From Bacteroidales bacterium (GTDB lineage Bacteria > Bacteroidota > Bacteroidia > Bacteroidales > WCHB1-69), in assembly GCA_016290295.1 (NCBI GenBank), contig JAEETJ010000004.1:10546-74545 (forward strand): a stretch of DNA of 64,000 bases, in the 5' to 3' direction. The notes beneath the pieces were generated by a model. The model had not been told where the DNA came from, did not search any database, and was given only the letters and a program-made list of their open reading frames with translations. This document shows positions 21,490 through 37,734 of this stretch, one piece after another. Numbering within the stretch: the first letter of the stretch is position 1; every line of letters starts with the position of its first letter. Position numbers and translations under genes: made by a program.

Positions 21490-21510
21490 ACGAGACATTT
21501 CAATTGATAG

Positions 21511-21750: not shown

Positions 21751-21756
21751 AAACAA

Positions 21757-22254: not shown

Positions 22255-22368
22255 ACGAGGCAAAGATACAAAAAAAATCATACGAAGCAAAAAATTTCTT
22301 TTCATTTTTTTCACCATGATAGGAAAATAGGTAAAAGATCTTTACCGACATTTTCAGCCTTGCAAAAC

Positions 22369-22560
22369 TTGACGGAATTAGCGGCGGAGCCGCAATCACC
22401 GTATAGACCCAGGCAGAGCGCCTATACCACCCCACCCTCGTAGAGGGTTCAACATCAACAGGCATGGGTATAACACCGTTATTTCTGCCGCGGTGCGGGT
22501 ATCGTGTGCACCGAAGCATTTTGGGCAAGGACACCGCGGAGGGGGGGAGCGTTTGAGACG
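22369..22560 (-). repeat. B module copy 1: ~190-nt GC-rich multi-hairpin element
   Basis: About 90% identical to 23341-23530. Hairpins: GCGGC-gga-GCCGC, ACCCTC-gta-GAGGGT, GTATAG...CTATAC, and an 8-bp stem CCGCGGTG/CACCGCGG (22487-22494 / 22532-22539) enclosing TGCTTCGGTGCA (minus-strand reading). Confidence 0.75.
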
Positions 22561-22775
22561 AAGAAGACACAATAAAAACTCCCAAAATTTCTGCTGCCAT
22601 TCTAAAGATTTTTGGAGCAGCAAAAAACACACAATATGCCTTTTTAGCATGTTATCGTATTATTTCGTCCACTTTTTGAACGAACGTTGCATTTTATACA
22701 ATACTGATTTTTAGCAAATTAACAATACTTTCATACTTGATTTTATGATTTGGATAAGATAACTTTGCAAATAAA
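22561..22775 (+). promoter_or_regulatory. cassette promoter module P2
   Basis: GTCCACTTT at 22667; -7 box TAACTTTG at 22760-22767 (93-nt spacing). Near-identical to P1 and P3. Confidence 0.7.
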
Positions 22776-22788
22776 AAAATTCAAAAAC

Positions 22789-22804
22789 TTGATATATATA
22801 TCAA
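22789..22804. promoter_or_regulatory. perfect 16-bp palindrome TTGATATATATATCAA (candidate operator)
   Basis: Read directly. It lies between P2 and a second -7-like box TAATTTTG (22814-22821), upstream of the small gene + XRE pair. Confidence 0.45.
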
Positions 22805-22828
22805 TTATTTTTATAATTTTGCAACGTC

Positions 22829-23066
22829 ATGAAAAAGAAAAGCACATTGGATAAAATATCCGAATCTCAAAAGGCTACACTCTACTCCATCAGCTTCGAG
22901 AAAGATGGCACAACTGAATTTGAGAAGTTTGTGTCAGAATTCGAGATGATATGTGATAGATTTACAACGGTTTGAAAAAATCTTAAAAGAAAACATTGAG
23001 AAAGGCTATATCAGCGTTCACGAAAAAGAACTTATAGGTACAGACAATATCATTTTCGAAATATGA
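22829..23066 (+). pseudogene. small gene upstream of XRE regulator, apparently frameshifted (+1) near 22970
   Basis: Frame 1 gives MKKKSTLDKISESQKATLYSISFEKDGTTEFEKFVSEFEMICDRFTTV*. The +1 frame continues KILKENIEKGYISVHEKELIGTDNIIFEI*, and its TGA overlaps the ATG of the next gene (ATGA at 23063-23066). Confidence 0.4.
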
Positions 23067-23332
23067 AAAACAAACAAGAATGGTTCAAATCAAAAGTGAA
23101 GCAAGTCCCTCCGGAAATCATGACGGAAGTACAGCTTTCCGCTGGCATTATTGCACGCATTGACAGAATTCTCAAAGAAAAAAACATGACCCAGCGCGAT
23201 TTGGCGAAGAAATTAGGGAAAAACGAAGCCATGGTATCACGATGGACCACAGGGTTCCCTAATTTCACACTTCGTACCTTAGCACAGATTTCCACCGCCT
23301 TGGGCGAACCGCTTATCAAATTGGCAGAGTAG
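23063..23332 (+). CDS. XRE-family helix-turn-helix protein (antitoxin-like regulator)
   Basis: 89-aa ORF. The HTH reads MTQRDLAKKLGKNEAMVSRWTTGFPNFTLRTLAQISTALG. Confidence 0.75.
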   Translation: MKNKQEWFKSKVKQVPPEIMTEVQLSAGIIARIDRILKEKNMTQRDLAKKLGKNEAMVSRWTTGFPNFTLRTLAQISTALGEPLIKLAE

Positions 23333-23340
23333 CCTTCCTG

Positions 23341-23530
23341 AGTTTGACGGAATTAGCGGCGGAGCCGCAATCACCGTATAGACCCAGGCAGAGTGCCTAT
23401 ACCACCCTACCCTCGTAGAGGGTTCAACATCAACAGGCATGGGTATAACTCCGTTATTTTTGCCGCGGTGTAGGTGTCGTGTGCACCGAAGCATTGGGCA
23501 AGGACACCGCGGAAGGAGGTCGATTGAGCT
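23341..23530 (-). repeat. B module copy 2
   Basis: Same hairpin set as B1. Differences include a 2-nt indel (cattttgggc vs cattgggc) and scattered substitutions. Confidence 0.75.
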
Positions 23531-23750
23531 GAAGAAGACACCCCAAAAACTCCCAAAATTTCTGCTGCCATTCCGAAGATTTCTGGAGTAGCAAAAAACA
23601 CACAATATGCATTTTTAGCATGCTATCGTATTATTTCGTCCACTTTTTGAACGAACGATACATTTTTTCATAACACTGATTTTTAGCTAATTAACAATAC
23701 TTTCACGCTTGATTTTAAGATTTGGATAAGATAACTTTGCGGACAAAAAA
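23531..23750 (+). promoter_or_regulatory. cassette promoter module P3
   Basis: GTCCACTTT at 23638; -7 box TAACTTTG at 23732-23739 (94-nt spacing). Confidence 0.7.
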
Positions 23751-23809
23751 ACTTATAGTAAAAAAAACAGTAAGTTATAACATATTGCAACTTTTTTGTA
23801 TTTTTGCCA

Positions 23810-24148
23810 ATGGAAAGAAAAATAATCACTTATGGAAATTATTTTAGATCATTTTTAAAGACGCTATGTGAAAATGTTCGATGGAAATTGGATTATGTAT
23901 TGGATATGTTGAAGACCCAAAAGCGGCTCAACTCGAGGTTCGTCAAACCTATAAGAGAAGGGATTTTTGAATTAAGAATAGAATGGGAAGGTGACATATA
24001 TCGGGTTTTCTTCATTTTCGACGAGGGTAACATTATCGTTCTTTTTAATGGATTCCAAAAAAAAACAAGAAGAACTCCGACTTCAGAGATAGAAAAAGCA
24101 ATAACGATAAAAAAGGAATACTATGAATACAAAAGAAAACAAAATTAA
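23810..24148 (+). CDS. type II toxin, RelE/ParE superfamily (HigB / phage Gp49-like)
   Basis: The ORF is trimmed to the ATG at 23810. The IREGIFELRIEWEGDIYRVFFIFDEGNIIVLFNGFQKKTRRTP pattern is typical of Gp49/HigB-like toxins. It is followed by an overlapping XRE antitoxin gene. Confidence 0.75.
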   Translation: MERKIITYGNYFRSFLKTLCENVRWKLDYVLDMLKTQKRLNSRFVKPIREGIFELRIEWEGDIYRVFFIFDEGNIIVLFNGFQKKTRRTPTSEIEKAITIKKEYYEYKRKQN

Positions 24149-24428
24149 GAGCTATGACACTATACTTGACGAAAGGTATGGTGCCGTTGGCACTCCCGAA
24201 AGGGAAGCTTTCCGCAAAGAAGCATACGCCTACTATATGGGCCAAGTAATACGTGAAGCCCGTCGGGAGGAAAAGATAACCCAGTCCGAACTAGGCAAAC
24301 GGATTGGCGCCAATAAAAGCTACATATCAAGAGTCGAAAACGGACTCATCGACCCCACCATTTCAACCATTTATAGCATTATTACGGCTTTGGGATTAAG
24401 AATTGAGATTGTGCGCCCTGTAGGTTAA
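24123..24428 (+). CDS. HigA-like XRE-family antitoxin
   Basis: 101-aa ORF with HTH ITQSELGKRIGANKSYISRVENGLIDPTISTIYSIITALG. It overlaps the toxin 3' end by 26 nt. Confidence 0.75.
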   Translation: MNTKENKIKSYDTILDERYGAVGTPEREAFRKEAYAYYMGQVIREARREEKITQSELGKRIGANKSYISRVENGLIDPTISTIYSIITALGLRIEIVRPVG

Positions 24429-24510
24429 CATAAACAGCCACAGGTCATTGTTTTTGCAGTTATAATTAGACACCTTTTGGGTATTCTATTTGATGAAATT
24501 CAAACAGCGA

Positions 24511-25086
24511 TTATAAGTCATCTATTGCCGAACTGCGAACCTTTTCGGAATTGGCCTTGTCGTAATAGCCCAATCGAACAGCAGCTGTATTATATTTTGT
24601 CCCAGAAATAATAGACAGCTCAATGTTACCTAGATCTGTAGAGAATATGGTATACCATTCATATTCACCATCTTTTAATGCATACATGATAAGAGCATTA
24701 TCATTCCCATGATAGTCTATAAAACGTTCTCTATTGTCCGATGGAATTCCATATTTTTCAGTCAACATGGATTTTAGAGTTTCATAATCACTTAAAACCG
24801 ATGTCCATGTATCTTTATCAGGAAACAACACTGTGATATGACTCACAACATCGAGGTTTTTCAACGTGGATACCCCAACAACACAATTTTTATATCCCGC
24901 GAAATCACCAGTCAATATGGATATTCCATCTTGAGTTCCCTCGTAGTGGAATCCGGCTTTTACCATGGCATTGGTATATTCCTGTAAGGTGCCATCAATG
25001 GGCACACCCTTAAAAGAAAGATGTTGTTGGGCAAATGCAGTACCTGCAATAATGAGGCAAACGAAAAGGATGATTATTTTTTTCAT
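24511..25086 (-). CDS. secreted hypothetical protein
   Basis: The ORF is trimmed to MKKIIILFVCLIIAGTAFAQQ (signal peptide). No recognisable domain. It starts 28 nt downstream of the radical SAM gene on the same strand. Confidence 0.55.
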   Translation of the reverse strand: MKKIIILFVCLIIAGTAFAQQHLSFKGVPIDGTLQEYTNAMVKAGFHYEGTQDGISILTGDFAGYKNCVVGVSTLKNLDVVSHITVLFPDKDTWTSVLSDYETLKSMLTEKYGIPSDNRERFIDYHGNDNALIMYALKDGEYEWYTIFSTDLGNIELSIISGTKYNTAAVRLGYYDKANSEKVRSSAIDDL

Positions 25087-25114
25087 AGGGCTGTTGGTTT
25101 TTTCAATGTTATGT

Positions 25115-27178
25115 TTATTTATGTTTATATCGTTTATTTGCATGTGCAGGATCTTTGTCATATTCTTTTTTCATCAAATAAAGTTCTGTATTAGACTCTA
25201 TTAGGGATTTTCTGTCATTTTTATAAAAAGATAATAATTCCAAAACCAAAGGATTACAGAATCGTTCGTTATCGTTCTCAAAATTATTTTGATGAATATA
25301 TTCTTTAACTTCTTCCCACTCATTTGATGGAAGTATATTTTCACATTTTTTGAAGCAAGTCCACCAGGAATAAACAGAAAAATGTTCCAAACTATAACCC
25401 AATACTCTTTTTGCAGTCTCTATACCTCTTTCAAGGCCAAGCCATTCAAAGAAAAAACGATAAATAATCATCGTTTCAGGCATTTCAAGCAATTGATGAT
25501 ATTCATTTATATCTTTGCCAAAAGCTTTCTCAAAAAAAGATGTGCCTCGCCCAATCTTGCCCTTGGTGCTATTTAATATGGCTTGAACGGCACGAATATA
25601 TTTTCTATTCCAATATTCTCCAATATAGTCTCGATTATGGGAAAAATCCTCTTTCATCTCATCGTTTTTGCGAATAGGATGGAATTTCATCGGGAAGGAA
25701 TATATACTTATTCCAAGAGTATCGCATAAATCCACATTAATCCTTAAACGCTCATATAAACTGTCTGGATGGTCTTTGTAATTATATAGCAAGTAATTTG
25801 AAAAATCTTTTATTCCTGCATCTTTACACATACGAATTGCCTCACAATATTCGACCTTAGTATGTAGATTATCAAAGGCTATGCGAACGGGACGAATGGC
25901 GATCTGTCCTAACAATCTGGCTTTTTCAGGTGTAAACAATCGAGCATCTAAACCTTGATTAAAATCAACAAAACGAAGTTTACCTTTCCCAGGCTGATAA
26001 TACTTTTTGCCCACATCTTTCAGTTCATCGTATGCAGCAAGAATATTTTCCTTTGTCGCTGAATGTAATTTGTTAATATGATATTTTTGGAACAATATTT
26101 TGTATGCGAGATATGATTCTTCTCTGTTTTTCAACTTATTATAAAGTTCCATTAATAGTCTTTGTGATTTTCGAACATAAGCACGATCATTAACACCTTT
26201 TTGAAGATTATTTATACTTAATCTCAATAAATCCGGTTGCACAAATTTCTCACCCTTAGCGAACCCACAATCCTTAATTTCTTGAATAATTTTATCAAAA
26301 TGATTGGATGCCAAAACATTGTTGTCCATTAAAAGCAGATCTTTTTGTTCACCGTATTTTTTTCGGACATTGTCTATCCGAATTTTTAAAGGGATATAAT
26401 CTTGATAAATAGGCTCTAGAGTTTTTACAGCGCAAAACGCACAATTCCTTATACAACCACGTGTAGTGTATCGATAATACGCATTAGACATAGGATACTG
26501 ATAATCTATCTCATCAAGAATAGAATAGTCTAGTTCTAATTCATCAATAGGAATAGTATTATCCAGATCTAAATCTCCAGGTCGTAGAATCCCGACATGG
26601 ATCCCACCTGGTTTACCATGTTTATGAAGTTTCAAACCCGTAGCTATTGACAATTCATGAGGTTGGATTGAGGCAAGTACCCCTCCAACCATAAGGTTAC
26701 TGTTTTTCTTAACCAAAAATTTTGCGAATTCGACGGTCTCTACAGTGATGTCCCAATAAAATGTGAAGAGAGTCGTCACACAAACGACGTCCCACTCTCG
26801 TTCTCGAGGATGTTTCCAAATTCCTTTCCAATAATAGTCTTTGTATTCAATGAGTTTGGAATATAAAAGAATTGATAATTCAGAACTCTCAAGTTCTAAT
26901 TTGTCAATATACTCTTTGCGTTTTGTACGAATAAATTGAATAACAAACTCTTTTTTTAAATACCATTCAACAGAAGAATCAATCTGGGAAAAAGCATTGA
27001 TACACTTATCAGCAATACGCTCAATCACAAATTGTTTCAAGTCGCCTTTATAAAACACAACTTCATCTCCCACCATTTTGTAGTAAGTAGAGATTTTCAT
27101 CAAACCTACTGGAGGAAACTTATTTGCATAATTAGGTTCAATAAGCAGTACTTTCCGTTTCTTTTTTTGCCTTGTCAT
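25115..27178 (-). CDS. radical SAM enzyme with N-terminal B12-binding-like (Rossmann) domain and long C-terminal extension
   Basis: 687-aa ORF with a CX3CX2C cluster (TTRGCIRNCAFCAV). The N-terminal KVLLIEPNY..PPVGLMKISTYYK..GDEVVFYKGD...VVCVTTLFTF...LMVGGVLAS resembles class B rSAM cobalamin-domain topology. There is no SPASM-type Cys cluster and it is not viperin-like. Its start lies 1 nt after the upstream gene stop. Confidence 0.75.
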   Translation of the reverse strand: MTRQKKKRKVLLIEPNYANKFPPVGLMKISTYYKMVGDEVVFYKGDLKQFVIERIADKCINAFSQIDSSVEWYLKKEFVIQFIRTKRKEYIDKLELESSELSILLYSKLIEYKDYYWKGIWKHPREREWDVVCVTTLFTFYWDITVETVEFAKFLVKKNSNLMVGGVLASIQPHELSIATGLKLHKHGKPGGIHVGILRPGDLDLDNTIPIDELELDYSILDEIDYQYPMSNAYYRYTTRGCIRNCAFCAVKTLEPIYQDYIPLKIRIDNVRKKYGEQKDLLLMDNNVLASNHFDKIIQEIKDCGFAKGEKFVQPDLLRLSINNLQKGVNDRAYVRKSQRLLMELYNKLKNREESYLAYKILFQKYHINKLHSATKENILAAYDELKDVGKKYYQPGKGKLRFVDFNQGLDARLFTPEKARLLGQIAIRPVRIAFDNLHTKVEYCEAIRMCKDAGIKDFSNYLLYNYKDHPDSLYERLRINVDLCDTLGISIYSFPMKFHPIRKNDEMKEDFSHNRDYIGEYWNRKYIRAVQAILNSTKGKIGRGTSFFEKAFGKDINEYHQLLEMPETMIIYRFFFEWLGLERGIETAKRVLGYSLEHFSVYSWWTCFKKCENILPSNEWEEVKEYIHQNNFENDNERFCNPLVLELLSFYKNDRKSLIESNTELYLMKKEYDKDPAHANKRYKHK

Positions 27179-27179
27179 A

Positions 27180-28712
27180 TCAAGCCAAATCTTTAACCAC
27201 TTTTTTTCTTAATTCTTCTAAAAGGTCCCTATGTCGCTTGGGGCAATACGCGAACAACAAATCAAATATTCGCTTTGTGATTTCTATATCACTGTTTGAC
27301 ATTACCTCTTTTAGGGATTCATACGGATCAGTTGGTTTCAACAAATTATTCGTGGAAACGATGTTACTTTTGTCAGATTGCGGCATATCGCTGCCTGTCT
27401 CTATGCTTGAAGCGATAACTTGTTGCTTGTAATGTTCAATTACTTGTTTGGCAGCAACTGATTGTGCATTTTTTGACTTCTCCTTCCGATAAAGCTTGTC
27501 CAGCACAATATTTTTCTCCTCCTGTTTTTCAGGGGTTAGCTTTTCCTCTTTTTCAATTGTATTGATATCTCTGACGACATTCTTAATTTCATTTGCCAAG
27601 TGATATAACTTAACAAGTTCATCAAATTTATCTCTAATGAACGACTTCAATTTCTCAGATTCAGGAGTTGGAGCTAATCCATCTCTAGCACTATTAAGTT
27701 TGATCTTGGGATTCACAATATGTATTTCCCCATAAAAATATTTATTACCTCGTGTTTCGTTTTTGGGAAAGTATTGTGTCAAAATATTAGCATCTCCAAC
27801 CTGTATATTATGTTTGCGTAAACGGAAGCAACTATTTTTATCCGACACAGGAATCTGTTTTGAGAAAGGTGTGTTTGCATACCATCCCCATGCCAACAAA
27901 CCGTATTTCTCATCTTCAAACTTGAAATACTCCAATCTTAAAATATCATCGCCGGTCCCTTCAATTTTTAACCCATATTTTTTCTTTAGAGAAATGCCAT
28001 TGTTGACCGATATTTGGAAAAAACCAACTTTCTGGTGTAAATCTCTATACTCATCGTGAACACAAGTATCAACCAATTGATTCTTAAAAGGCACGGAATA
28101 ATCAACTGGTGCAACTTCCTTGAGATAATCTGATATAACACACTCATCTAACAATTCTGGATAATCAGGGTGGATATTTTCAAGAGTTACAATAAAATAG
28201 TGTTTTGAAGCTTCTTCTTCGTATAGTTTCAAATCTGTAGTCTTATCAATCACTTCCGTTGCTGTAGAGTGGTCTGAATCATCATCTAGAATGTTTTTTA
28301 TTTTATCAATATCAAAGACTATTTCAGACGCCTTATTTTCGCCTTTAAAAGACGTCTTGAAAGAAAGTTTTTTACAAAAATATCCGCCGACCAGTCTTCC
28401 AATGCCAAATTGTCCAGCTGAAGTCTCTCCATCTTTTGAAGAGTCTGCTATATCAAGCAACACCGGTTCCACCTTGTCTATAGATACTCCTGTTCCATTA
28501 TCTTCAATGGTAATTATCTTGTCAGTTTTATTGATAGTGATAGAAATCCTTCCATCAGTTATCTTTGACAAGACACCACTTTGTACCGCATCATTTATTG
28601 CATCCCGTGAATTCTGTATGTATTCTCGATAAATCAATTTTGAATCTCCATACATTTGGAACATAAGCATGGAAATAAGATTCTTACCGACTTTTGATTT
28701 ATGCTCTGTCAT
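27180..28712 (-). CDS. GHKL-superfamily ATPase, Hsp90/HtpG-N-terminal-like (MORC-like conflict-system ATPase)
   Basis: 510-aa ORF. It has the N-box LIYREYIQNSRDAINDAV, the G1 box ITIEDNGTGVS and the G2 box GQFGIGRLVGGYF. The C-terminal half is helical and charged. Confidence 0.75.
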   Translation of the reverse strand: MTEHKSKVGKNLISMLMFQMYGDSKLIYREYIQNSRDAINDAVQSGVLSKITDGRISITINKTDKIITIEDNGTGVSIDKVEPVLLDIADSSKDGETSAGQFGIGRLVGGYFCKKLSFKTSFKGENKASEIVFDIDKIKNILDDDSDHSTATEVIDKTTDLKLYEEEASKHYFIVTLENIHPDYPELLDECVISDYLKEVAPVDYSVPFKNQLVDTCVHDEYRDLHQKVGFFQISVNNGISLKKKYGLKIEGTGDDILRLEYFKFEDEKYGLLAWGWYANTPFSKQIPVSDKNSCFRLRKHNIQVGDANILTQYFPKNETRGNKYFYGEIHIVNPKIKLNSARDGLAPTPESEKLKSFIRDKFDELVKLYHLANEIKNVVRDINTIEKEEKLTPEKQEEKNIVLDKLYRKEKSKNAQSVAAKQVIEHYKQQVIASSIETGSDMPQSDKSNIVSTNNLLKPTDPYESLKEVMSNSDIEITKRIFDLLFAYCPKRHRDLLEELRKKVVKDLA

Positions 28713-28724
28713 AACACTCTGATT

Positions 28725-30377
28725 TTAGCCATTAGGAAATTGCTTGTATGTTGGACGTGGAAATTTAATATTTACCAAAGACCGCAGTGCTGGATTGGAA
28801 ATAATATATTCACCTGGGGAAAGTCTAGTCATCATATTTTGGTATACTTTCGGAATATACCTATAATCAGACTTTGAAACTTCGATTGCATTCGTGCGAC
28901 CATACGCATGCGTAGCACAGTTTCCTTTTACTCTATCGTGTATTGCGCTTCGAAATTGCTCAACCGAAAAAAGTATGATTCCTAAAGAACGACCGCGTTC
29001 GGCAATATCTAGCAATTGCCGTAGAATAGGCGAGTTTTTAGGTACATCGTTTGAAGCATATTTGTTCAATTCATCCACAAACAAAATCACTTTTTCAGGG
29101 ATATCATCACGTTCTGCACCCAATTTCATATCATAAATGGCACGTGCCACACTACCGAATACAAAACTTTGAGTATTCTCGTCTAGGCGGGCAATATCAA
29201 TTACCATTACTTGACCTGCCTTCAAATTATTTTGTATTTCATCTGTAATGTCAACATCCAAATTTGTATGTGTTTTGGCAAATACATCATTTCTAATAGC
29301 TTTACTTATACAACGTTTGAATTTTCTCCAACTAGTAACTTGTATCTCTTTGTTTTTATTGTCTTTATTTCCAGCTTGTGTTGATTTGCTAATAGCATCT
29401 TCTAATGACGACCACTTGTCAATTCCTTGAAAAGCGCCCTCCTTGTTAATGACGAAATTTACGCAACTTTCCAATGTACCAGAGCTATCATCCTCATTGG
29501 CAAGTAGTAAATCTAATTTATCCTGTGATTTTTCAAATGTAAATTTGTATGTAAAAGCTTTTTTATTCTCCTTCTGTCTTTTAACATCGTCTGGTTTGGC
29601 ATAAGTTTGCACATTTTCAACAATACTATCTTTACTATATGGATAATAGTATTTGACATTTTTAAATGGTTCAGCCGACAAACCTAAATCCATATAAATT
29701 TTTTTATCCATATCCGATAAATCTGTATTTGCCTCGTCTATCGCCATCAAGTCCCTTCCTTTTACATTGAAAAAAACGAAAGCAGCAGAACTCCCATCTT
29801 CAAGCCTAAATTTGTGTTGAATAGCATTAAGTAAAAACATGGAGTATGATGTTTTTGCTGCTAAGCCTGAAATACCAGAAATATTAAGATGTGCTCCTTC
29901 TGGACCGATAAGGAAATGAGAGTCCAGTTCCACTTTTACTTTACATGTTTCATCTCCTTGATACATTTGCAAATACCCACATACGAGAGGATGTTTCACA
30001 TCTTTTAACCCAAGAGCAACTTTAATATCCTCTTCATCACAAAGAGAAACCTGTTTGCCGTCTAATACAGGCGTATAAACATCTCCTGTATTACAAACAA
30101 CACGAGCTTTTACATAATTCATTCCCAAATGATTCATATAGCCAACGACTTCTTTAGTATCTCCAAAATCGCTAGAAATATAACTAGTAAAATGACTTGA
30201 TGAATCTGTTACATGGTTAATTTCTTCAACCACACCATATGTAACAGAATCTAACTCGTGTGTAACTTTGACGACATCAAAAGGACTGAGAATACATCGT
30301 TTGTCAGTCCAAAAATAAAACTCGTCAATAGTTGATGGCATATTTTCAGTGGCAGATACTTTACCAATAATTTTCAT
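28725..30377 (-). CDS. HerA-like FtsK/HerA-superfamily ATPase (HAS-barrel + P-loop, DUF87-type)
   Basis: 550-aa ORF. It has an N-terminal HAS-barrel-like segment (KIIGKVSATEN...FDVVKVTHELDSVTYGVVEEINHV), an atypical P-loop (ISGISGLAAKTSY), Walker B (VILFVDELNKY) and a distal ERGRSLGIILFSVEQ segment. Confidence 0.7.
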   Translation of the reverse strand: MKIIGKVSATENMPSTIDEFYFWTDKRCILSPFDVVKVTHELDSVTYGVVEEINHVTDSSSHFTSYISSDFGDTKEVVGYMNHLGMNYVKARVVCNTGDVYTPVLDGKQVSLCDEEDIKVALGLKDVKHPLVCGYLQMYQGDETCKVKVELDSHFLIGPEGAHLNISGISGLAAKTSYSMFLLNAIQHKFRLEDGSSAAFVFFNVKGRDLMAIDEANTDLSDMDKKIYMDLGLSAEPFKNVKYYYPYSKDSIVENVQTYAKPDDVKRQKENKKAFTYKFTFEKSQDKLDLLLANEDDSSGTLESCVNFVINKEGAFQGIDKWSSLEDAISKSTQAGNKDNKNKEIQVTSWRKFKRCISKAIRNDVFAKTHTNLDVDITDEIQNNLKAGQVMVIDIARLDENTQSFVFGSVARAIYDMKLGAERDDIPEKVILFVDELNKYASNDVPKNSPILRQLLDIAERGRSLGIILFSVEQFRSAIHDRVKGNCATHAYGRTNAIEVSKSDYRYIPKVYQNMMTRLSPGEYIISNPALRSLVNIKFPRPTYKQFPNG

Positions 30378-30378
30378 A

Positions 30379-31581
30379 TTAAAACATATTTAGAATTATA
30401 TTTTCATTAACATAATGCGATTTGCAAAAAGATTCAGTTAAGAAAATAGGGTACAAATGATTTGCCCAACGTGAATCTTTCCCAAAACACACGGGATATG
30501 CTTCTCGGATTAACTGTGAACTTATTGTGTTAATTAGTTCCGTTTCAAAAGGGCTATCATCCATTATCACCATTTCGCATTTAATGATATCTGAGAAATG
30601 TGAATCTCGAAAATCACTATTGCGCAGTCTGACATACCATACCGCAAATGCTTGAACAAAACCGTCTTTATTTTGTGATTCATAACGATACACTTTAGTA
30701 CGTTCAAATGGCTTTAACTCGGCAATCGTTCTTGAAAGTCGATTTCCTTCATAATCAGAGAGAAGAGCGGGATCAAATAATTTGGAGACACCGACAACAT
30801 GTGTGTAATTATCTTTAAAGTTATTGAACTGCGTTTTATCAAGGTTTGAAAACCTTGGATTATATTCCAAAGAACCATCTTTAATTAGCCAATGCTCATC
30901 ATCTAGTTTGTTTTCTTGGCAAAGATTTGCCACAAGAAGTTGCTCTTCATCCATCATTTCATTTTGAATCTTAGCTACCGCACGATTCTTATAATTGTCT
31001 TTGTCACGATCCTCACTTGACCCATCAGTTTTGTATAGCAATATCTTATCAATTGTCAAATTTCTATCTGAAATGAATTTGGACTTTAACATTTCAGTAT
31101 TCAAACTTTCGCAAAATGCACGACAAAAGTTCTCACCTCCATCATCATCATCAAAATCATCAGGCATTGCAATGACAATTTTACTACAAAGAGCACCCCT
31201 TTTAACAAGGGATGCATTCTTAATACAATCCCGACTTTTCCGTTCACAACAACCCACTATCACTTGTCCTGCAATTATGGGGAAAATTTTCTTACCAATG
31301 GCAATATCATCTACCTTGTATGTATGGCGTGAACCATCAAGAAAAAAACTAAATATTGGAGGGGGCACAACAGTATGACTTAGTAATTTGGACAAATCGA
31401 CTGTTTTTTTTCGTGTTCTATCTGTTTCTGCAAAGTCACTCTTTGTAGAAATAGAGGCAACCTTATCATCATAATTATAAGCTATGGAATCGTTGTTCAC
31501 TGTGTCCAGTGATAATTTCTTCGTCTTGTAACAATGATATTTGCCATTACCCTGCAACTCTATGAAATCTAATATTTTCAT
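30379..31581 (-). CDS. NurA-like nuclease (RNase H-fold), partner of the HerA-like ATPase
   Basis: 400-aa ORF. The motif order resembles NurA: FLDGSRH, then ..CCER.., then WLIKDGSLEY, then VVGVSKLF, then LYPIFLTESFCKSHY. Its stop lies 1 nt before the HerA-like start. The assignment is motif-based and needs profile or structure confirmation. Confidence 0.5.
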   Translation of the reverse strand: MKILDFIELQGNGKYHCYKTKKLSLDTVNNDSIAYNYDDKVASISTKSDFAETDRTRKKTVDLSKLLSHTVVPPPIFSFFLDGSRHTYKVDDIAIGKKIFPIIAGQVIVGCCERKSRDCIKNASLVKRGALCSKIVIAMPDDFDDDDGGENFCRAFCESLNTEMLKSKFISDRNLTIDKILLYKTDGSSEDRDKDNYKNRAVAKIQNEMMDEEQLLVANLCQENKLDDEHWLIKDGSLEYNPRFSNLDKTQFNNFKDNYTHVVGVSKLFDPALLSDYEGNRLSRTIAELKPFERTKVYRYESQNKDGFVQAFAVWYVRLRNSDFRDSHFSDIIKCEMVIMDDSPFETELINTISSQLIREAYPVCFGKDSRWANHLYPIFLTESFCKSHYVNENIILNMF

Positions 31582-31954
31582 ATTCTTTCAAACTGTTTTT
31601 TCCCCACCCCAAAAAAAATTTATTTCCTATCAAAGTTCCGGAAAGACTTGCAACATAAATAAAGTAACTCCACGCCTAAGCGCAAACATCACTTTTTATA
31701 GAGCTTTTTCAAAACTTTCCAGTTTCTAATATCACAAAAAAAATGCTTTTTTATACTAAGTGTTTTAAAGAGATTGTTTTCTTCTATGGGCAATTATTAT
31801 TTGTTAATGATTAAATTCGTTTTGTGCATCATATGCGTTGCAAAAGTAACATAAATTTCTAAAAAAAACAACAAAAAACTATCTTTTACAACGGTTTTCC
31901 ATTGTTTTTGTTTTGTTGCAAAGTATTGTTATTACTTTGTTGGCATGTTCGCGA

Positions 31955-32305
31955 CTTTCGCGGCAGGCTCATCCCATCATCATAGCAAGCAACACCCGCA
32001 CCGCGGGAGGAGTGATGATGTCGCTCCTACCCCACACTGCGGCCTGCGGCCTTGTGAGGGGTTACTAAAAGGTCGCCTCTGCGAGGCTCAATTGGTACGG
32101 CTTCGCCGTAATATACATACCATTACCCCGCCCTTCGGGCACCCGTTGGAGGCGTTGTCCCTTGTCCGTTCCAGGGGCTTTGCCCCTGTCTGTACCAGGG
32201 GTTTCACCCCTGTCTATGGTCTTTTCGGCCCTACGGGCCTTACTCCGCCCTGTCGATGCGTCCCATCAATTGTCCACCAACGGACGCATGCGATGCGTCC
32301 CTATA
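31955..32305 (+). repeat. C module copy 1: mosaic of GC-rich hairpins (REP/BIME-like)
   Basis: It begins with CTTTCGCGGCAGGC. Contents: CCAGGGGctttgCCCCTG, CAGGGGtttcaCCCCTG, GGCCCtacGGGCC and GGACGCATgcgATGCGTCC. Confidence 0.75.
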
Positions 32306-32401
32306 TATCATATTTATATCAAAAATTTCCGCATGGAAATTTTTACCTTAATACCGCTTTTGCGAATTACTTGCTTAGAAAAACGAGGAGTATGGAGAGC
32401 T

Positions 32402-32543
32402 AAAAAGCCGACTGTTTGAGCTTGCTTTTGCAAGCGAGTTTCGGCTTTTTAGGCTACAGACGACCGTTTTTTAGCGAGCATATTCGCATGCGGAAAAGCC
32501 ACTTTTCTTTGCCCCTTTCTTTTGTGGCTGCAAAAGAAAGGGG
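32402..32543. other. two strong nested hairpins between C1 and P4
   Basis: AAAAAGCCGA...(GCTTGCttttGCAAGC)...TCGGCTTTTT at 32402-32450, and CCCCTTTCTTTTG-tggctg-CAAAAGAAAGGGG at 32512-32543. Confidence 0.7.
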
Positions 32544-32559
32544 AAGAAAAAAAAATCAC

Positions 32560-32700
32560 AACATCTTTTTTGCAACTTTTCGCTCACTTTCGTCCACTTT
32601 TTGACCCGAAAGTGCAAATTGTCAAACCATTGATTTTTAGCAAATTAAAAATTATTTTGCCATTGATTTTTCAGTTCAGGTGTTGTACCTTTGCAGAAAT
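32560..32700 (+). promoter_or_regulatory. cassette promoter module P4
   Basis: GTCCACTTT at 32592; -7 box TACCTTTG at 32686-32693 (94-nt spacing); ATG at 32721. Confidence 0.7.
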
Positions 32701-32720
32701 CAAAAACTAAATAAAAACTT

Positions 32721-33296
32721 ATGGAAAAGAATCGTCCTCAAGTGGGGAGCGGGCCATCCAATTCGGACTCCCCATCAGACAATGTCAATTCTTCTATTAC
32801 GAGTAGCCCTACCGATACCCTTCGTACCTCGAAGAATCCGAGTGCAAAAATAATAAAAAATCCAACACCAATATTGTCAAAAATAAGGAAATTTAAAAAC
32901 AATGACTTCGTCCTAAATTACTCTAAAGGATGGAATGGTGTATTAGTTGGTTTACGAAAACTCCTGCAACTAAATTATGAAGGCGGTTCAAACTATGCAA
33001 ATTACGAAACTCAAAAGGGGATTTTATCATTAAGGCTTTCTGACCATAATGCAAATGGCAACAATTTTAACACAGACCACATCAATATAAGTGTTTATGT
33101 TGCACTGATTGAATATCAGCATGTTGAGACAAGGGTAAAATACATAGAATATAGAATCACGAAAGAAACGTATAATAAATACCCCAAAAAAGTTGTATAT
33201 GAAATTGTAACTGCAGTTGAACGAGCATTGAGTGGTGAAGTGTTTGAATTAAACAATGACATTGCTGAGAAGACGCCTTATGAAATAGAAATCTAG
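32721..33296 (+). CDS. hypothetical protein (disordered Ser/Pro/Asn-rich N-terminus, globular C-terminal ~130 aa)
   Basis: 191-aa ORF directly served by P4. No domain recognised. It has a notable LSLRLSDHNANGNNF segment. Confidence 0.55.
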   Translation: MEKNRPQVGSGPSNSDSPSDNVNSSITSSPTDTLRTSKNPSAKIIKNPTPILSKIRKFKNNDFVLNYSKGWNGVLVGLRKLLQLNYEGGSNYANYETQKGILSLRLSDHNANGNNFNTDHINISVYVALIEYQHVETRVKYIEYRITKETYNKYPKKVVYEIVTAVERALSGEVFELNNDIAEKTPYEIEI

Positions 33297-33377
33297 GGCC
33301 TGACAAGTCTGCTTAAACTCCGCCATGACAATGTGTGCGGGAGCAAGATCGAAATCATCCTTTGCTAAAACAACACA

Positions 33378-33754
33378 CTTTCGCGGCAGGCTCATCCCAT
33401 CATCATAGCTGGCGACACCTGTGCCGCGAGATGGGTATGGGGCATTTTGTACCAGGGGGTTCACCCCTGGCTATGGTCTTTTCGGCCCTACGGGCCTTAC
33501 TCCGCCCAGATGCCACATCCCTACAATTGTACACCAACGGACGCACGCGATGCGTCCCTACAGACTAATCCAGCGGACACATAGAGAAATGCCTACGGCT
33601 GCCGTGATACGACAGCCCTACATGATGTGCGTGCGGACGCGGACGCATGCGATGCGTTCCTACACATAATACCCTGCGGCATCAGGGCGTAAAACTTCCG
33701 AAATTTCAGTTCCACCCTTCCTATCTTCAACCTGGATTCCAAAACCTCCACCTT
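33378..33754 (+). repeat. C module copy 2
   Basis: The anchor hairpin CGCGGCA...TGCCGCG is followed by CCAGGGG/CCCCTGG, GGCCC/GGGCC and three hairpin+CCCTACA units (minus strand reads GTAG+hairpin). About 95% identical to C3 over ~250 nt, estimated by eye. Confidence 0.8.
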
Positions 33755-33892
33755 CTTTTTTTTGCAACTTTTCGAACAATCTTGTCCACTTTCTGATCCA
33801 AAAATACAATTTATTAAACTATTGATTTTTAGCAAATTAACACACAATTTACTATTGATTTTTCTGTACTGATATCGTAACTTTGTGGGCAA
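33755..33892 (+). promoter_or_regulatory. cassette promoter module P5
   Basis: GTCCACTTT at 33784; -7 box TAACTTTG at 33878-33885 (94-nt spacing); ATG at 33906. Confidence 0.7.
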
Positions 33893-33905
33893 AAACAAAG
33901 TACTT

Positions 33906-34898
33906 ATGGCAAAGAAAAAGGATAAGAACGAACAACAAACTATCAAACCAGTCACAAATTGTGACCAGTTCCCAGAGGTAGTGGAAAATTTCCACCACTT
34001 CAAAGAAAACGAATCTATACTAAGTGTTCATGATATTGAAAAACTAATCGTAACGCTCAGAGGCGTACAAGTTATTATTGATCGTGATTTGGCATTTCTA
34101 TATCAGGAAGAAGTCAAACAAATGAACCGTCAGGTGAAGCGTAATATTGAACGTTTCCCTGCAGATTTCATGTTTCAACTGACCAAGGAAGAGTATGCTA
34201 GTTTGAAGTGCCATTTTGGCACTTCAAACGAAAGGGGTGGTGATCGTCGTGCATTACCCTATGCGTTTACCCAACAAGGTATTGGTATGCTCAGCGGGCT
34301 GCTTCGTAGTCAAGTGGCAATTGAGACCAACATCAAGATAATGCGAGCCTTTGTGGGTATGCAACGATACATCGCCGCTAGCATGCAGCTATTCCAGCGG
34401 TTAAACATCGTAGAGCTCCAACAATTGGAGGCCCGACAATGGATGAAAGATACGGAAAACAAAATTGAAAGCATTCTTGAAAGAATCGAAGAGAATTCCC
34501 CAAAAATGCTTCCAGAGCAAATTTTCCACACCGGCTGTGTATGGGACGCATGGGCTTACGTTTCTGACCTCGTTCGAAGCGCCAAAAGCCGAATCATCCT
34601 CATTGATAATTTCGTTGATGACAGGGTGCTTACCATGCTCACCAAACGTACCGAGGGCGTTACGGCTACCATCCACACCCGTTACAGTGAGCAGTTCCTC
34701 ACTGACTTGAAGAAGCACAACGAACAGTATCCTGAAATCCAATTCATCCAGCTCTCTCATCGCCACCACGACCGTTTCTTGATTATCGACGACAAGGTTC
34801 ATTTCCTCGGTGCCAGCGTAAAGGACATGGGCACCGGCCTCTGTGCCATTACAGAGATGAAAGTTGATCCTGAAACCATTTTGGGGCTGTTAAAATAA
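33906..34898 (+). CDS. ORF6N (KilA-N-related) DNA-binding domain protein fused to a PLD-like domain with HxR variant motif
   Basis: The ORF is trimmed to MAKKKDK. ORF6N core: LRGVQVIIDRDLAFLYQEEVKQMNRQVKRNIERFPADFMFQLT...LPYAFTQQGIGMLSGLL. C-terminal HDRFLIIDDKVHFLGASVKD fits the HxKxxxxD(x6)G spacing with R in place of K. Confidence 0.7.
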   Translation: MAKKKDKNEQQTIKPVTNCDQFPEVVENFHHFKENESILSVHDIEKLIVTLRGVQVIIDRDLAFLYQEEVKQMNRQVKRNIERFPADFMFQLTKEEYASLKCHFGTSNERGGDRRALPYAFTQQGIGMLSGLLRSQVAIETNIKIMRAFVGMQRYIAASMQLFQRLNIVELQQLEARQWMKDTENKIESILERIEENSPKMLPEQIFHTGCVWDAWAYVSDLVRSAKSRIILIDNFVDDRVLTMLTKRTEGVTATIHTRYSEQFLTDLKKHNEQYPEIQFIQLSHRHHDRFLIIDDKVHFLGASVKDMGTGLCAITEMKVDPETILGLLK

Positions 34899-34964
34899 CG
34901 ACCTGTTATTAGTACCGACGCTGTGCAGGGCAAGGCCGCCACCTCCCTCTGCTACAGCAACAGC

Positions 34965-35361
34965 CTTTCGCGGCAGGCAAGTTCCGTCATCAAAGCCAGT
35001 GTCCCTTGTGCCGCGAGGTGGGTATGGGGCATTTTTTACCAGGGGGTTCACCCCTGTCTATTCCAGGGGCTTTGCCCCTGTCTGTATTCTTTTCGGCCCT
35101 ACGGGCCTGATTAAGCCATAACACCGCATCCCTACAATTGTTCACCGACGGACGCATGCGATGCGTCCCTACAGACTAATCCAGCGGACACATAGAGACA
35201 TGCCTGCGGCTGCCGTGATACGACAGCCCTACATGATGTGCACGCGGATGCGGACGCATGCAATGCGTCCCTACACATAATACCCTGCGGCATCAGGGCG
35301 TAAAACCTCCGAAATTTCAGTTCCTCTCTCCCCTACTTCAGCTTGGATTCCAAAACCTCCA
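34965..35361 (+). repeat. C module copy 3
   Basis: Same unit order as C2, with an extra CCAGGGGctttgCCCCTG unit. Confidence 0.8.
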
Positions 35362-35505
35362 CCTTCCTTTTTTTTGCAACTTTTCGCTCACTTTTGTCCA
35401 CTTTCTGACCCAAAAGTTCAATTTATTAAACTATTGATTTTTAACAAATTAACAATTACTTTTCCATTGATTTTATGATTTCAACATTGTAACTTTGCGA
35501 GCGGA
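35362..35505 (+). promoter_or_regulatory. cassette promoter module P6
   Basis: GTCCACTTT at 35396; -7 box TAACTTTG at 35490-35497 (94-nt spacing); ATG at 35530. Confidence 0.7.
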
Positions 35506-35529
35506 AACAAACCATTAATTTTAAATACT

Positions 35530-36132
35530 ATGGAAAACAATTTACTTCCCGAAGTGGAAAAGAAAATTATCACCCTCAGAAACCAACAAGTGATATTGGA
35601 TTCAGATGTGGCTGATTTGTATGGTGTGGAAACCAAAGAAATTAATCAAGCAGTAAAAAACAATCCCGAGAAATTTCCCAAAGGATACATTTTTCAACTT
35701 GAAGATCAAGAATTTAGAAATTTGCGGTCAAAAAATTTGACCACAAAATTTTCAAAAACACGACAACTTCCTAAAGCTTTTACCGAAAAAGGACTTTACA
35801 TGTTAGCCACCATTCTCAAAAGTCCTAAAGCGGTGGAAACCACCATTGCCATTGTGGAAGCATATGCCAAATTAAAGGAACTATCACGGGTGATTGTGGA
35901 AGTTCCACATAAAGAGGAGGACAGCATGGAACAAAAGGTTCTCCTACATCGCGGAGGACAGTTAGTGGAAGACATCATGAGCAACATCCTTCCCAAACAA
36001 AGCAGTGAAACCTCCTTCGAACTAAACCTCGCCATGTTCAAATTCAAACATTCAGTAAAACGGGAGAACGAAGACAAAATCAACAGACTTGAAGCGGAAC
36101 TCGCTGAATTAAAGAAGAAAATCAAAACCTAA
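35530..36132 (+). CDS. ORF6N domain-containing protein (short form with C-terminal coiled coil)
   Basis: 200-aa ORF: LRNQQVILDSDVADLYGVETKEINQAVKNNPEKFPKGYIFQLE...LPKAFTEKGLYMLATILKS. Confidence 0.75.
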   Translation: MENNLLPEVEKKIITLRNQQVILDSDVADLYGVETKEINQAVKNNPEKFPKGYIFQLEDQEFRNLRSKNLTTKFSKTRQLPKAFTEKGLYMLATILKSPKAVETTIAIVEAYAKLKELSRVIVEVPHKEEDSMEQKVLLHRGGQLVEDIMSNILPKQSSETSFELNLAMFKFKHSVKRENEDKINRLEAELAELKKKIKT

Positions 36133-36245
36133 CGCTTCGTCCCTACAATTGTCCACCAACGGACGCATGCAATGCGTCCCTACAGACTAATCTAGCGGAC
36201 ACATAGAGAAATGCCTGCGGCTACCGTGATACGACAGCCCTACAG
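36133..36245 (+). repeat. C module copy 4 (truncated: two hairpin+CCCTACA units); right edge of island
   Basis: cgtCCCTACAattgtccaccaacGGACGCATgcaATGCGTCCCTACAgactaatc...GGCTAccgtgatacgaCAGCCCTACAg. Confidence 0.75.
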
Positions 36246-36540
36246 AAAGTTGGTAAAAAAACTTCATGTCAGCTTGATTTTTTGATCACTTTTTTATCAA
36301 GTTTTCATTGAAATATTCAAACGGACATGTGAAATAACAGAACAAAAAATGTTCTTGTTATATAGAAGAAAAAAGTGACGAAGAAGTTATCTATTTTTTG
36401 ACTATCTTTGCACCCTCAAAATTTAGACCTAAAAATATAATAAAGTTATAATATTTCTAAACTCATAAACTCAAAATTCTAAACCCAAACTTACAAATCA
36501 CCATCATTAATTCTTGTTTTTAATTCTTAACTCCAAAAAT

Positions 36541-37734
36541 ATGACCAAACAAAAAGAACCCATCTGGCTGAAAATAGTCCGTATTGCGCTGGCCTGCGTA
36601 TTTCTTTACTCCGGCTTCACCAAAGCCATCGACCCCGTAGCCACGGGCATCACCTTCGACGAATACTTCACCTCCTTCGGCATGAGTTTCATGCACCCGC
36701 TGTCGATGTTCTTCGCCTTCTGCATGACCGCCGCCGAATTCACCCTAGGCTTCATGATGCTCTTCCGTATCAAAATCCGCTTCACCGCATGGTGCTACCT
36801 GCTCTTCATGGTCTTCTTCTTCTTCCTGACCTTATGGCTCGCCATCGCCGAACACCTGGAAGTGAACTACGGCTACAACTTCGGTGTGGTGCGTGACTGC
36901 GGCTGCTTCGGACAGGCTGTACACCTCAGCAATAAAGAGACCTTCCTGAAGAATGTGGTCATCATGATCCCCACCCTGATTGTGTTCTTCAAACGCAAAA
37001 GCATCCCCGACATCCGCCTGACGGAACTGGGACAGTGGTGCTTCGCCGCCATCGGTGCCATGCTCGTATTCGGCTTACAAGCCTACTGCTTCCGCCACCT
37101 GCCTATCATCGACTATAGCAACTGGAAAGTAGGCGAAGATGTGGCCCAGAACTTCATTGACAAACCCGCTGTGCAAGATATCGCATTTATCTATCGGAAC
37201 ACCGCAGATGGCAACCTCGTCACCCTGTCGGAGGATGAACTGATGACCATCGGCGATGAACAGCCTGACTTTTACGATACCTACGAGTATGTGGACCGCA
37301 AAGACAGCATTATCAGTGAATTTGAAAGAGCTCCTCATGAAGGTTTCAATATGCTGGATTCCACTGGTTCGGATATGGCCATGGAAATCTTCCTCAGCGA
37401 AGAACCCGCCTATATCTTCTTCATGCATAATCTGGATGAAACTAATATAAAGGGTATTCAGAGTGAAGAATTTAAGCACATCGTGAACCAATGTCTTGAA
37501 AACGGCATTACTGTGGTGGGTGTTTCCAACTCTGACGAGGAGACCATCCGGAATTTCCGCCAGAACAATAACATTCCTTTCCCCATCTATGAAAATCACA
37601 TCGACCCCATTAAAGGTCCCTTCATGGTGCGTGATGCCGTCCGCTCAAACCCCGGCCTTATCATCATCCAAGGCGGCGTTGTGAAAGGGAAGTATAATTG
37701 GAGAGACTTTGGGAAGGTGAAAACTGATAATTAG
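36541..37734 (+). CDS. DoxX/MauE-family membrane protein with C-terminal thioredoxin-like domain
   Basis: The ORF is trimmed to the ATG at 36541. The N-terminal half has 4 TM helices (IALACVFLYSGFTKAIDP...). The C-terminal soluble domain has the redoxin-like layout PAYIFFMHNLDE...GITVVGVSNSDEE. A TATCTTTG box lies ~130 nt upstream. Confidence 0.6.
   Translation: MTKQKEPIWLKIVRIALACVFLYSGFTKAIDPVATGITFDEYFTSFGMSFMHPLSMFFAFCMTAAEFTLGFMMLFRIKIRFTAWCYLLFMVFFFFLTLWLAIAEHLEVNYGYNFGVVRDCGCFGQAVHLSNKETFLKNVVIMIPTLIVFFKRKSIPDIRLTELGQWCFAAIGAMLVFGLQAYCFRHLPIIDYSNWKVGEDVAQNFIDKPAVQDIAFIYRNTADGNLVTLSEDELMTIGDEQPDFYDTYEYVDRKDSIISEFERAPHEGFNMLDSTGSDMAMEIFLSEEPAYIFFMHNLDETNIKGIQSEEFKHIVNQCLENGITVVGVSNSDEETIRNFRQNNNIPFPIYENHIDPIKGPFMVRDAVRSNPGLIIIQGGVVKGKYNWRDFGKVKTDN

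Follow-up and report, generated by a model that had tools for sequence, protein, structure and literature searches.

In a 64,000-nucleotide stretch of DNA from an uncultured Bacteroidales bacterium (contig JAEETJ010000004.1, positions 10,546 to 74,545; hereafter the window), four GC-rich spacers between small plus-strand genes carry two types of short hairpin, here called the d and e units, each with a CTACA tag at one foot. Judged by their sequence, these units are very probably genuine repetitive extragenic palindromic (REP) elements, of the kind recognized by REP-associated tyrosine transposases (RAYTs; TnpA-REP, Y1 HUH enzymes) of subclass 2.4. A sequence-only reading of the region (31955–36245) had proposed an analogue of the REP elements and bacterial interspersed mosaic elements (BIMEs) of other bacteria. 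The REP character and the tie to RAYTs are supported by stem covariation, tag linkage, dispersal and the presence of copies within RAYT genes, while the comparison with BIMEs fails, as all units share one orientation.

The four spacers, C1 (31955–32305), C2 (33377–33700), C3 (34964–35300) and C4 (36121–36245), set apart three open reading frames (ORFs) on the plus strand (32721–33296, 33885–34898, and 35530–36132). They are mosaics with a constant order of elements, consisting of an a hairpin, one or two b hairpins, a c hairpin, a half-unit with a CCCTACA end, a d unit, an e unit, a second d unit, an f hairpin and a promoter-like block. On the plus strand the d unit reads GGACGC..GCGTCC-CTACA and the e unit GGCTGCCGTGATACGACAGCC-CTACA (a GGCTGCC..GACAGCC hairpin). 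On the minus strand both read TGTAG with the hairpin directly after it, as had been claimed from the letters alone. In total the island holds six d hairpins, three e hairpins and three half-units, every one in plus-strand orientation. The pattern GGACGCRYGCRATGCGTYCCTAYA has six matches, all on the plus strand (32282, 33539, 33641, 35150, 35252, and 36161) and none in shuffled sequences, and the second hairpin type, GGCTRCCGTGATACGACAGCC-CTACA, is found at 33597, 35208, and 36219. The heptamer CCCTACA occurs 11 times, again exclusively on the plus strand (10 times within 33519–36244 and once at 62885; shuffles gave a mean of 4.8 and a maximum of 10), so that the sequence-only reading, which placed hairpin-CCCTACA repeats in C2 to C4 and near 62880–62905, was accurate on this point. 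Its list of modules was right for these three and incomplete, as C1 also carries a unit (32282–32305) with a CTATA tag, and its unit spacing of about 40–57 nt has to be corrected to tag-to-tag distances of 37, 60, and 42 nt. The individual elements, with the strand on which the tag precedes the hairpin, are:

32282–32305, minus strand: REP unit of the d type in C1, plus strand GGACGCATGCGATGCGTCC-CTATA, with a degenerate tag

33519–33525, minus strand: half-REP remnant in C2, right arm and CCCTACA without the left arm

33539–33562, minus strand: REP unit of the d type in C2, reading TGTAGGGACGCATCGCGTGCGTCC on the minus strand

33597–33622, minus strand: REP unit of the e type in C2, GGCTGCCGTGATACGACAGCC-CTACA

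33641–33664, minus strand: REP unit of the d type in C2, mutated in its stem and at the tag junction, GCGTTCCTACA (the copy reads TTCCTACA)

35130–35136, minus strand: half-REP remnant in C3, CCCTACA

35150–35173, minus strand: REP unit of the d type in C3, matching the pattern

35208–35233, minus strand: REP unit of the e type in C3, hairpin and tag

35252–35275, minus strand: REP unit of the d type in C3 with the loop ATGCAAT, directly to the right of an 823-bp deletion junction

36141–36147, minus strand: half-REP remnant in C4, CCCTACA

36161–36184, minus strand: REP unit of the d type in C4, missing from three strains (L005, L007, and L008) through a 44-nt deletion

36219–36244, minus strand: REP unit of the e type in C4, hairpin and tag

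62867–62891, minus strand: REP unit outside the island, GGACGCGATTCATCGCGTCC-CTACA, downstream of the lon gene (60038–62473)

Eight of the nine full units in the island, as well as the unit at 62867, have an intact CTACA, that is, the GTAG tag at the 5' foot of the hairpin; the ninth has CTATA. The CCCTACA sequences at 33519, 35130, and 36141 belong to the half-units, in which the right arm is present and the left arm absent. Every d and e copy within the window lies between genes. The unit at 62867 closes a fifth, diverged module that follows lon (approximately 62570–62930), shows the same order of elements and ends in GGACGCGATTCATCGCGTCC-CTACA; its stem is the one most often encoded by RAYT genes, as the peptide VGTRFIAS. 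A look-up with the Lon protein for presence or absence of this module at 62.6–62.9 kb returned near-identical strains only. Within the island, C2 and C3 are 88% identical across 300 nt, and 124 nt of both recur in C4. The spacers fold better than shuffled sequences (z = -3.5 as DNA and -2.6 as RNA). A scan of the whole window with Rfam 15 at gathering scores gave no matches. Over most of the window the plus strand is C-rich, in which case the strand with the GTAG-hairpin would correspond to the lagging-strand template; this GC skew is too weak and was not used.

The unit is not confined to this genome. We scanned a collection of viral contigs and a collection with one genome per species for the pattern GGACGCN{5,9}GCGTCCCTACA, and obtained 36 stretches from the former and at least 120 from the latter. 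Record titles among the 120 genome matches listed include 58 Bacteroidota (Prevotella, Segatella, Muribaculaceae, Porphyromonas, Bacteroides and others), 32 Chloroflexota, and 12 Clostridia; the remaining scattered singletons may be chance matches. Inside GGACGC/GCGTCC, two or more additional Watson-Crick pairs are present in 178 of 197 copies, as compared to 6% of random middles, and these inner stems comprise dozens of different, lineage-specific sequences in which complementarity is kept. Among 26 hairpins that had not been selected for the tag (other GGACGC..GCGTCC hairpins in contigs chosen for one particular variant), 17 carry GTAG/CTAC on exactly one side, for which the chance expectation is less than 1%. 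From the tag linkage and the inner-stem complementarity together it follows that the CTACA tail holds in a larger sample, contrary to one possible outcome named in the sequence-only reading, and that the element depends on its structure. In related contigs of several genomes, inverted doublets (TGTAG-hairpin ... hairpin-CTACA) occur with the two hairpins 10–90 nt apart and the tags pointing outward. A Porphyromonas metagenome-assembled genome (MAG) has five related REPs on one strand, repeated in tandem with a strict 94-nt period and adjoined by a single inverted copy (L096, 2325–2816), a mode of clustering unlike the mosaic in the window.

The window's own 24-nt variant, GGACGCAYGCRATGCGTCCCTACA, was scanned in a metagenome collection and is present, as an exact match, in at least 119 stretches, mostly from rumen and animal-gut assemblies. 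The 127 matches listed fall into at least 58 distinct contexts by clustering of their flanks, and the island described here is one of these clusters, with 11 matches. The alternative outcome that the units would be limited to this island is thereby contradicted. Elsewhere the copies listed are mostly solitary and lie away from cassettes. Further unit copies are found on two contigs (L219 and L241) that appear to come from the same species as the window by tetranucleotide correlation (0.90–0.91). Hairpins of the e type were found 33 times in the contigs with the window variant, and 32 of them are tagged; there were none in the other two locus sets. A literature search with the sequence of the unit returned only chance matches to primers.

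Among the 58 contexts of the exact variant in the matches listed, 34 are intergenic and 24 lie in frame inside long ORFs. For 17 intergenic contexts genes are called on both sides, and these genes are convergent in seven, tandem in eight and divergent in two cases, so that 15 of the 17 copies have the 3' end of one neighbouring gene or of both beside them; in the tandem contexts the orientation is antisense in six and sense in two. The copies within ORFs are read in several frames and in both orientations, encoding peptides such as DACDASLQ, CRDASHAS, and VGTHRMRP. In several cases a Pfam domain match spans the REP-encoded peptide (the C-terminal sorting domain of the type IX secretion system, Dus, PfkB kinase, peptidase U32/DUF3656, and EamA), and contigs with an in-frame REP in a real gene include L203, L204, L174, L176, L182, L243, and L279. 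With 24 of 58 contexts in ORFs, the copies on related contigs are thus not strictly extragenic. The window itself contains no in-frame insertion.

The connection to RAYTs comes from copies of the unit that are part of transposase genes. A six-frame search of the fetched loci revealed RAYT-like ORFs in loci from Chloroflexota (L161), Pleurocapsa (L141) and a Bacteroides MAG (L104), and in each of them the unit is located inside the ORF, just past the HUH motif, where it is translated as VGTR.... A database search with the protein of the Bacteroides MAG retrieved 580 homologues, many of which have a precomputed PF01797 annotation and many of which encode VGTRFIAS, corresponding to TGTAGGGACGCGATTCATCGCGTCC in frame. 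The exact window variant is present in frame inside the RAYT ORFs of eight stretches among the matches listed, directly after MPNHVHLIV, and TGTAGGGACGCATYGCATGCGTCC in RAYT ORFs reads CRDA[SL]HAS. After the in-gene REP there is usually a second REP in inverted orientation (DAC[DN]ASLQ or DARGASLQ), together with tandem half-REPs, for instance (PLHAS)n. In addition, an e-type hairpin with a double foot lies just 5' of the RAYT gene in three loci (L181, L247, and L306).

The proteins encoded by these genes (L181, L235, L255, and the P-series) are 184–255 aa in length and share the motifs MPNHVHLIV, (A/S)WQ(S/P)RY and YIE(T/Q/N)NP, with CRDA[SL]HAS ... DA(C/R)xASLQ in frame. Their sole strong family match is to NCBIfam NF047646, REP-associated tyrosine transposase (E 1e-17), the best match among solved structures is E. 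coli TnpArep (4ER8), and members of the family are named 'REP element-mobilizing transposase RayT' by JGI. Subclass 2.4 of TnpA-REP, equivalent to Bertels group 4, is described as having REPs in frame between the HuH motif and the tyrosine, double-foot REPs, and a variable loop of short repeats; its diagnostic traits are NH[IFV]H, WQ, a YIxNNP-like tyrosine motif, an insertion between beta3 and alphaC and a length of approximately 194 aa, and it is plentiful among Cyanobacteria and Bacteroidetes, with REPs also inserted in unrelated genes (PMC6006769). On the basis of these diagnostic traits, which the RAYT proteins share, we provisionally place them in subclass 2.4. The variable loops of three RAYT genes (L181, 7543–8208; L306, 1997–2626; L285, 3454–4077) contain tandem half-REPs between two inverted REPs. 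Their repeats are 15-nt CCATTGAATGCGTCC units that give (PLHAS)n, and (HASGAS)n is seen as well. RAYTs that are about 60% identical at the protein level carry near-identical 24-nt REPs.

The host is known from MAGs and metagenomes as an uncultured 'Bacteroidales bacterium', and we consider it rather likely that its genome contains a Y1 transposase of this family. An L181-type RAYT is present in both assemblies, JAEEGG01 and JAEEGH01, in which there are also contigs with proteins identical to those of the window, and the RAYT contig L247 derives from JAEEGH01, as does a window-like contig; this is co-occurrence, not linkage. The tetranucleotide correlation with the window is intermediate for L181 and L306 (0.83–0.84) and 0.64 for the type represented by the Paludibacteraceae locus L292 and by L235. 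Comparing the flanks of the RAYT genes with the spacer units of the window, the e-type hairpin was the only element shared. One very prevalent RAYT (P0062) was considered as the enzyme of this species and rejected, as its loci share none of the window's units.

Several observations argue against assigning the units to this class of elements. Six-frame phmmer and hmmsearch analyses, and Pfam searches of the island's neighbours and the long ORFs of the flanks, identified no RAYT in the 64-kb window. The RAYT accessions obtained do not overlap the accession ranges of those MAGs in which the window's glycyl-tRNA synthetase and ribosomal protein S20 occur, and none of the contigs with RAYT genes was also a contig with the window's proteins. 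For the nearest candidate locus, L181, the tetranucleotide correlation with the window reaches 0.83, below the 0.89–0.94 of same-genome controls. The NF047646 scores of the RAYT proteins stay short of the curated threshold, the match being split by the insert in frame, and the Pfam Y1_Tnp matches are marginal. Finally, units are found at only two places within 64 kb, and the units of the island are all oriented alike, with no inverted doublet, thought to be the mobile form, in the window.

For the units as REPs of subclass 2.4, the following course of events can be proposed. RAYTs of this family bind the folded single-stranded hairpin together with the GTAG at its 5' foot, and then cut and rejoin single-stranded DNA, whereby REP copies spread. 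In the window, REP singlets have probably piled up in one orientation in the spacers after each small cassette gene. The 88% identity of C2 and C3 over 300 nt indicates that much of the multiplicity arose through duplication or conversion of whole spacers and not through separate insertions. Once settled, the repeated units could serve as substrates for homologous and microhomology recombination, leading to presence or absence of units among strains. We infer that a RAYT acts, or has acted, on the copies in this genome, and that the hairpins may also shape the 3' ends of cassette mRNAs.

We compared the array between eight close strains. Its genes are:

32721–33296, plus strand: cassette ORF of 191 aa, without a family match (Pfam, PADLOC)

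33885–34898, plus strand: cassette ORF of 337 aa with an ORF6N domain

35530–36132, plus strand: cassette ORF of 200 aa with an ORF6N domain

The order of the cassettes is constant in these strains, being (KilA-N) – 191 aa – long ORF6N – 200-aa ORF6N. The differences between them are deletions, with junctions in directly repeated REP sequence or in microhomologies of 4–7 nt (ATGC, ACAATTG). Three strains (L005, L007, and L008) have lost the second arm of a d unit and the adjacent linker in the ATGC-flanked 44-nt deletion, and strain L006 lacks a d-linker-e stretch through recombination between two direct d units. In four strains (L003, L004, L005, and L008) a deletion of 823 bp (window 34428–35250) has its junction at ACAATTG, adjoining a CCCTAC tag. 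It truncates the 337-aa ORF6N gene and fuses its middle to the REP cluster, resulting in a shortened ORF6N ORF of 213–251 aa that reads through REP and promoter-block sequence. These deletions at repeats and microhomologies fit ordinary homologous and microhomology-mediated recombination and do not call for a site-specific recombinase. The sequence of the a hairpin varies with the ORF upstream and that of the promoter-like block with the ORF downstream, which identifies the REP cluster between them as an exchange zone. In a more distant relative (L250, 4349–7900) the same slot has REP-cluster spacers and cassettes of 163 aa and 128 aa that replace the ORF6N genes; an N6-methylase-type gene and a 224-aa gene are located upstream.

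The array is part of a slot between a DUF1599 gene (20935–21489) and a MauE/DoxX gene (36514–37734) whose content varies between strains and which is a defence hotspot (window 21490–36510). The ORF6N proteins match the PADLOC candidate defence family PDC-S05 (E 7e-103 for 33885–34898 and 6e-74 for 35530–36132). The slot of the window further contains a five-gene minus-strand operon (24511–31581) with weak mad8/HerA, HATPase_c_3 and radical-SAM signals; at the same place L003 has a type I restriction-modification system and ApeA/HEPN, L005 and L008 have a Dnd-like set, and L004 has nothing. At 21546–24428 three direct repeats with a period of approximately 1 kb (starting at 21546, 22572, and 23543) and a second repeat family (22356 and 23331) are present. 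They carry small genes resembling toxin-antitoxin genes, namely a PBECR1 fragment (21724–21993), an HTH_3 gene (23063–23332) and a pair formed by a Gp49/HigB-like gene (23804–24148) and its HTH_3 partner (24123–24428).

The setting in the hotspot raises two related possibilities. In the first, the REP clusters and promoter blocks would act as portable homology linkers, by which candidate defence genes are swapped, deleted and re-joined at the hotspot without a dedicated site-specific recombinase, and single-strand nicks that a RAYT makes at GTAG hairpins could promote this exchange. We regard this as unlikely; if true, it would amount to a REP-based, integron-like cassette system in Bacteroidales with PDC-S05/ORF6N, KilA-N and other cassette genes. 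In the second, the spacers themselves are the recombination sites of an integron- or rAID-like cassette system, with the GTAG hairpins as crossover sites and the recombinase, of the tyrosine type or a RAYT, encoded elsewhere. The cassettes are indeed co-oriented, have their own promoter-like blocks and are separated by repeated structured spacers, REP clusters still separate the replaced cassettes of L250, and the variation of the a hairpin and promoter block puts the exchange zone at the REP cluster. These features have to be set against the fixed gene order in close strains, deletion junctions that do not coincide with one constant site, and the observation that most copies elsewhere are solitary and not beside cassettes. 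Moreover, no recombinase of any kind was detected by Pfam in the window or, among called genes, within 6–10 kb of the array in the eight strains, whereas rAID-1 is defined by an adjacent XerD-like gene (Ross et al.). An rAID-1 or integron as the principal reading was therefore rejected, since no recombinase adjoins the array in any strain, and crossover at dedicated sites by an enzyme encoded at a distance is in our view quite unlikely. We know of no report of RAYTs moving genes, and the suggestion in the sequence-only reading that a RAYT could be the missing recombinase of the cassettes finds no support in the strain differences, which are deletions at REP repeats or microhomologies.

The hairpins could instead function purely as RNA, protecting or terminating the 3' ends of cassette transcripts without any mobility at the DNA level. 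Each unit in the island is located downstream of a cassette ORF, with the hairpin followed by CUACA in the sense of the mRNA, and the spacers fold better than shuffles, also as RNA (z = -2.6; -3.5 as DNA). The preference for 3' ends extends to other contigs (15 of 17 intergenic copies flanked by genes on both sides), and REPs of E. coli are known to stabilize the upstream mRNA. Elsewhere, though, the orientation relative to the flanking genes varies, with six antisense and two sense copies in tandem contexts, 24 of the 58 contexts listed are within ORFs, in several frames and both orientations, and the exact sequence is embedded in RAYT genes. Rfam yielded no match at gathering scores, just a sub-threshold Acido-Lenti-1 match on the b and c hairpins. 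A function limited to RNA leaves the dispersal of the unit unexplained and is very unlikely, although a role in RNA is compatible with the units being REPs. Local tandem duplication of one spacer, with a coincidental likeness of the GTAG-hairpins to REPs, would account for the similarity of C2 and C3 (88% over 300 nt), for the 124 nt repeated in C4 and indeed for most copies in the window, which can be traced to spacer duplication, but is hardly credible given a unit 26 kb away after an unrelated gene, the exact variant in at least 57 other contexts and inside RAYT genes, and stem covariation and tag linkage that hold in unrelated genomes.

The d and e units are interspersed with other short GC hairpins, as had been noted from the sequence, and the spacers contain a promoter-like block outside the REP cluster:

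31954–32013, plus strand: a hairpin (TTCGCGGCAGG...GCCGCGA), the first element after the cassette, with copies at 33377–33436 and 34964–35023

32171–32239, plus strand: two b hairpins (CCAGGGGnnnnnCCCCTG) and a c hairpin (GGCCCTACGGGCC), without the GTAG tag

33672–33687 and 35283–35298, plus strand: f hairpin (CCCTGCGGCATCAGGG), whose exact form was seen solely in the window and its strains

32566–32693, plus strand: AT-rich promoter-like block of approximately 130 nt that precedes each cassette ORF and ends in TAnnTTTG

The b hairpin has the form CCAGGGGn5CCCCTG, and the region contains CCAGGGGnnnnnCCCCTG(G) five times, GGCCCTACGGGCC three times and CCCTGCGGCATCAGGG twice. Sets of b and c hairpins equivalent to those of C1 are present at 33452–33496 and 35039–35107, and a diverged further copy of the a hairpin at approximately 62585–62660. 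The promoter-like block recurs at 33758–33885 and 35370–35497; its TAnnTTTG end is what we take to be promoter-like, in line with work on Bacteroides promoters. In the sampled data the a, b, and c hairpins occur almost exclusively in island-type contexts. It had been proposed that these other hairpins are part of the REP mosaic; being essentially confined to the island, a, b, c, and f are better considered a separate local feature, for which REP status is unsupported.

By eye, the loop of the CGCGGC/GCCGCG stem in the a element is complementary to bases just 3' of the stem, with the pairings CCCATC/GATGGG in C2 (33377–33445), CATCATCA/TGATGATG in C1 (31954–32040) and TCAC/GTGA at 62585–62660. 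This hints at a pseudoknot with covariation, which C3 does not fit. In an Rfam scan of the region (E<=1), the b and c pair at 33452–33497 scored 24 bits for the Acido-Lenti-1 RNA (E 0.022), below that family's gathering score of 37, probably a chance likeness of two GC hairpins. An ORF of 152 aa across C1 (window 31945–32403), called as a gene in public assemblies (L001, 6416–6874), is most likely spurious, a product of the GC-rich repeat.

The identification of the units as probable REPs provides a name and a probable enzyme partner for a repeat that fragments rumen and gut Bacteroidales assemblies, in which RAYT genes, too, are mostly on short contigs in these data, and that yields spurious gene calls such as the 152-aa 'gene' over C1. 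It also shows REP singlets as deletion breakpoints in a defence-island gene array, one of the deletions truncating an ORF6N gene. To the existing picture of subclass 2.4, which is unchanged, it adds the details of identical 24-nt REPs in diverged RAYTs, REPs in housekeeping genes, and loop repeats made of half-REPs.

Among known systems, integron attC sites and the rAID-1 repeats of Bacteroidales are similar in that structured repeats lie between co-oriented cassettes with their own promoters. They differ by an adjoining tyrosine recombinase (IntI or XerD-like), which was revealed neither by Pfam in the island's neighbours and in the window's other long ORFs beyond the part with precomputed annotations nor by the gene calls near the array in eight strains, and by the absence of the solitary dispersed units and non-site-specific junctions seen here. 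Palindromic elements of Rickettsia likewise lie in frame in bona fide protein genes, as do our units on related contigs, not in the window; their sequence family is unrelated and, to our knowledge, they have no associated RAYT. The REP/BIME system of E. coli with its TnpA-REP (YafM; PDB 4ER8) shares the GTAG followed by an imperfect palindrome, the clustering in intergenic spacers and at 3' ends of genes, and a homologous Y1 HUH enzyme. In contrast to the present units, all of which point in one direction, BIMEs consist of Y and Z REPs that alternate in inverted orientation, joined by defined linkers; the stems are unrelated in sequence, and the E. coli RAYT gene is flanked by REPs and does not contain them. 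The REP doublets (REPINs) of Pseudomonas (Bertels and Rainey, 2011) resemble the inverted doublets on related contigs and in the interiors of RAYT genes, while the window has no such doublet and the RAYTs belong to group 4 instead of groups 2 and 3 as in Pseudomonas.

The closest resemblance is to the REPs of subclass 2.4 (Quentin et al., 2018; PMC6006769). The element kind, the enzyme, the REPs within its gene and the in-frame insertions in other genes have already been described at survey level. New here are the lineage, this particular family of sequences and the location in a defence-island gene array; the present host is an uncultured rumen or gut Bacteroidales with units in same-orientation clusters. 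In both, GC-rich hairpins have a 5' GT[AG]G at their foot, double-foot forms (TGTAGGG...CCCTACA) lie beside the transposase gene, and there is a variable loop of short repeats. Both have enzymes of approximately 190–215 aa with NH[IFV]H, WQ and YIxxNP motifs, and both extend over Bacteroidetes, Cyanobacteria and scattered phyla, with in-frame REPs in unrelated genes.

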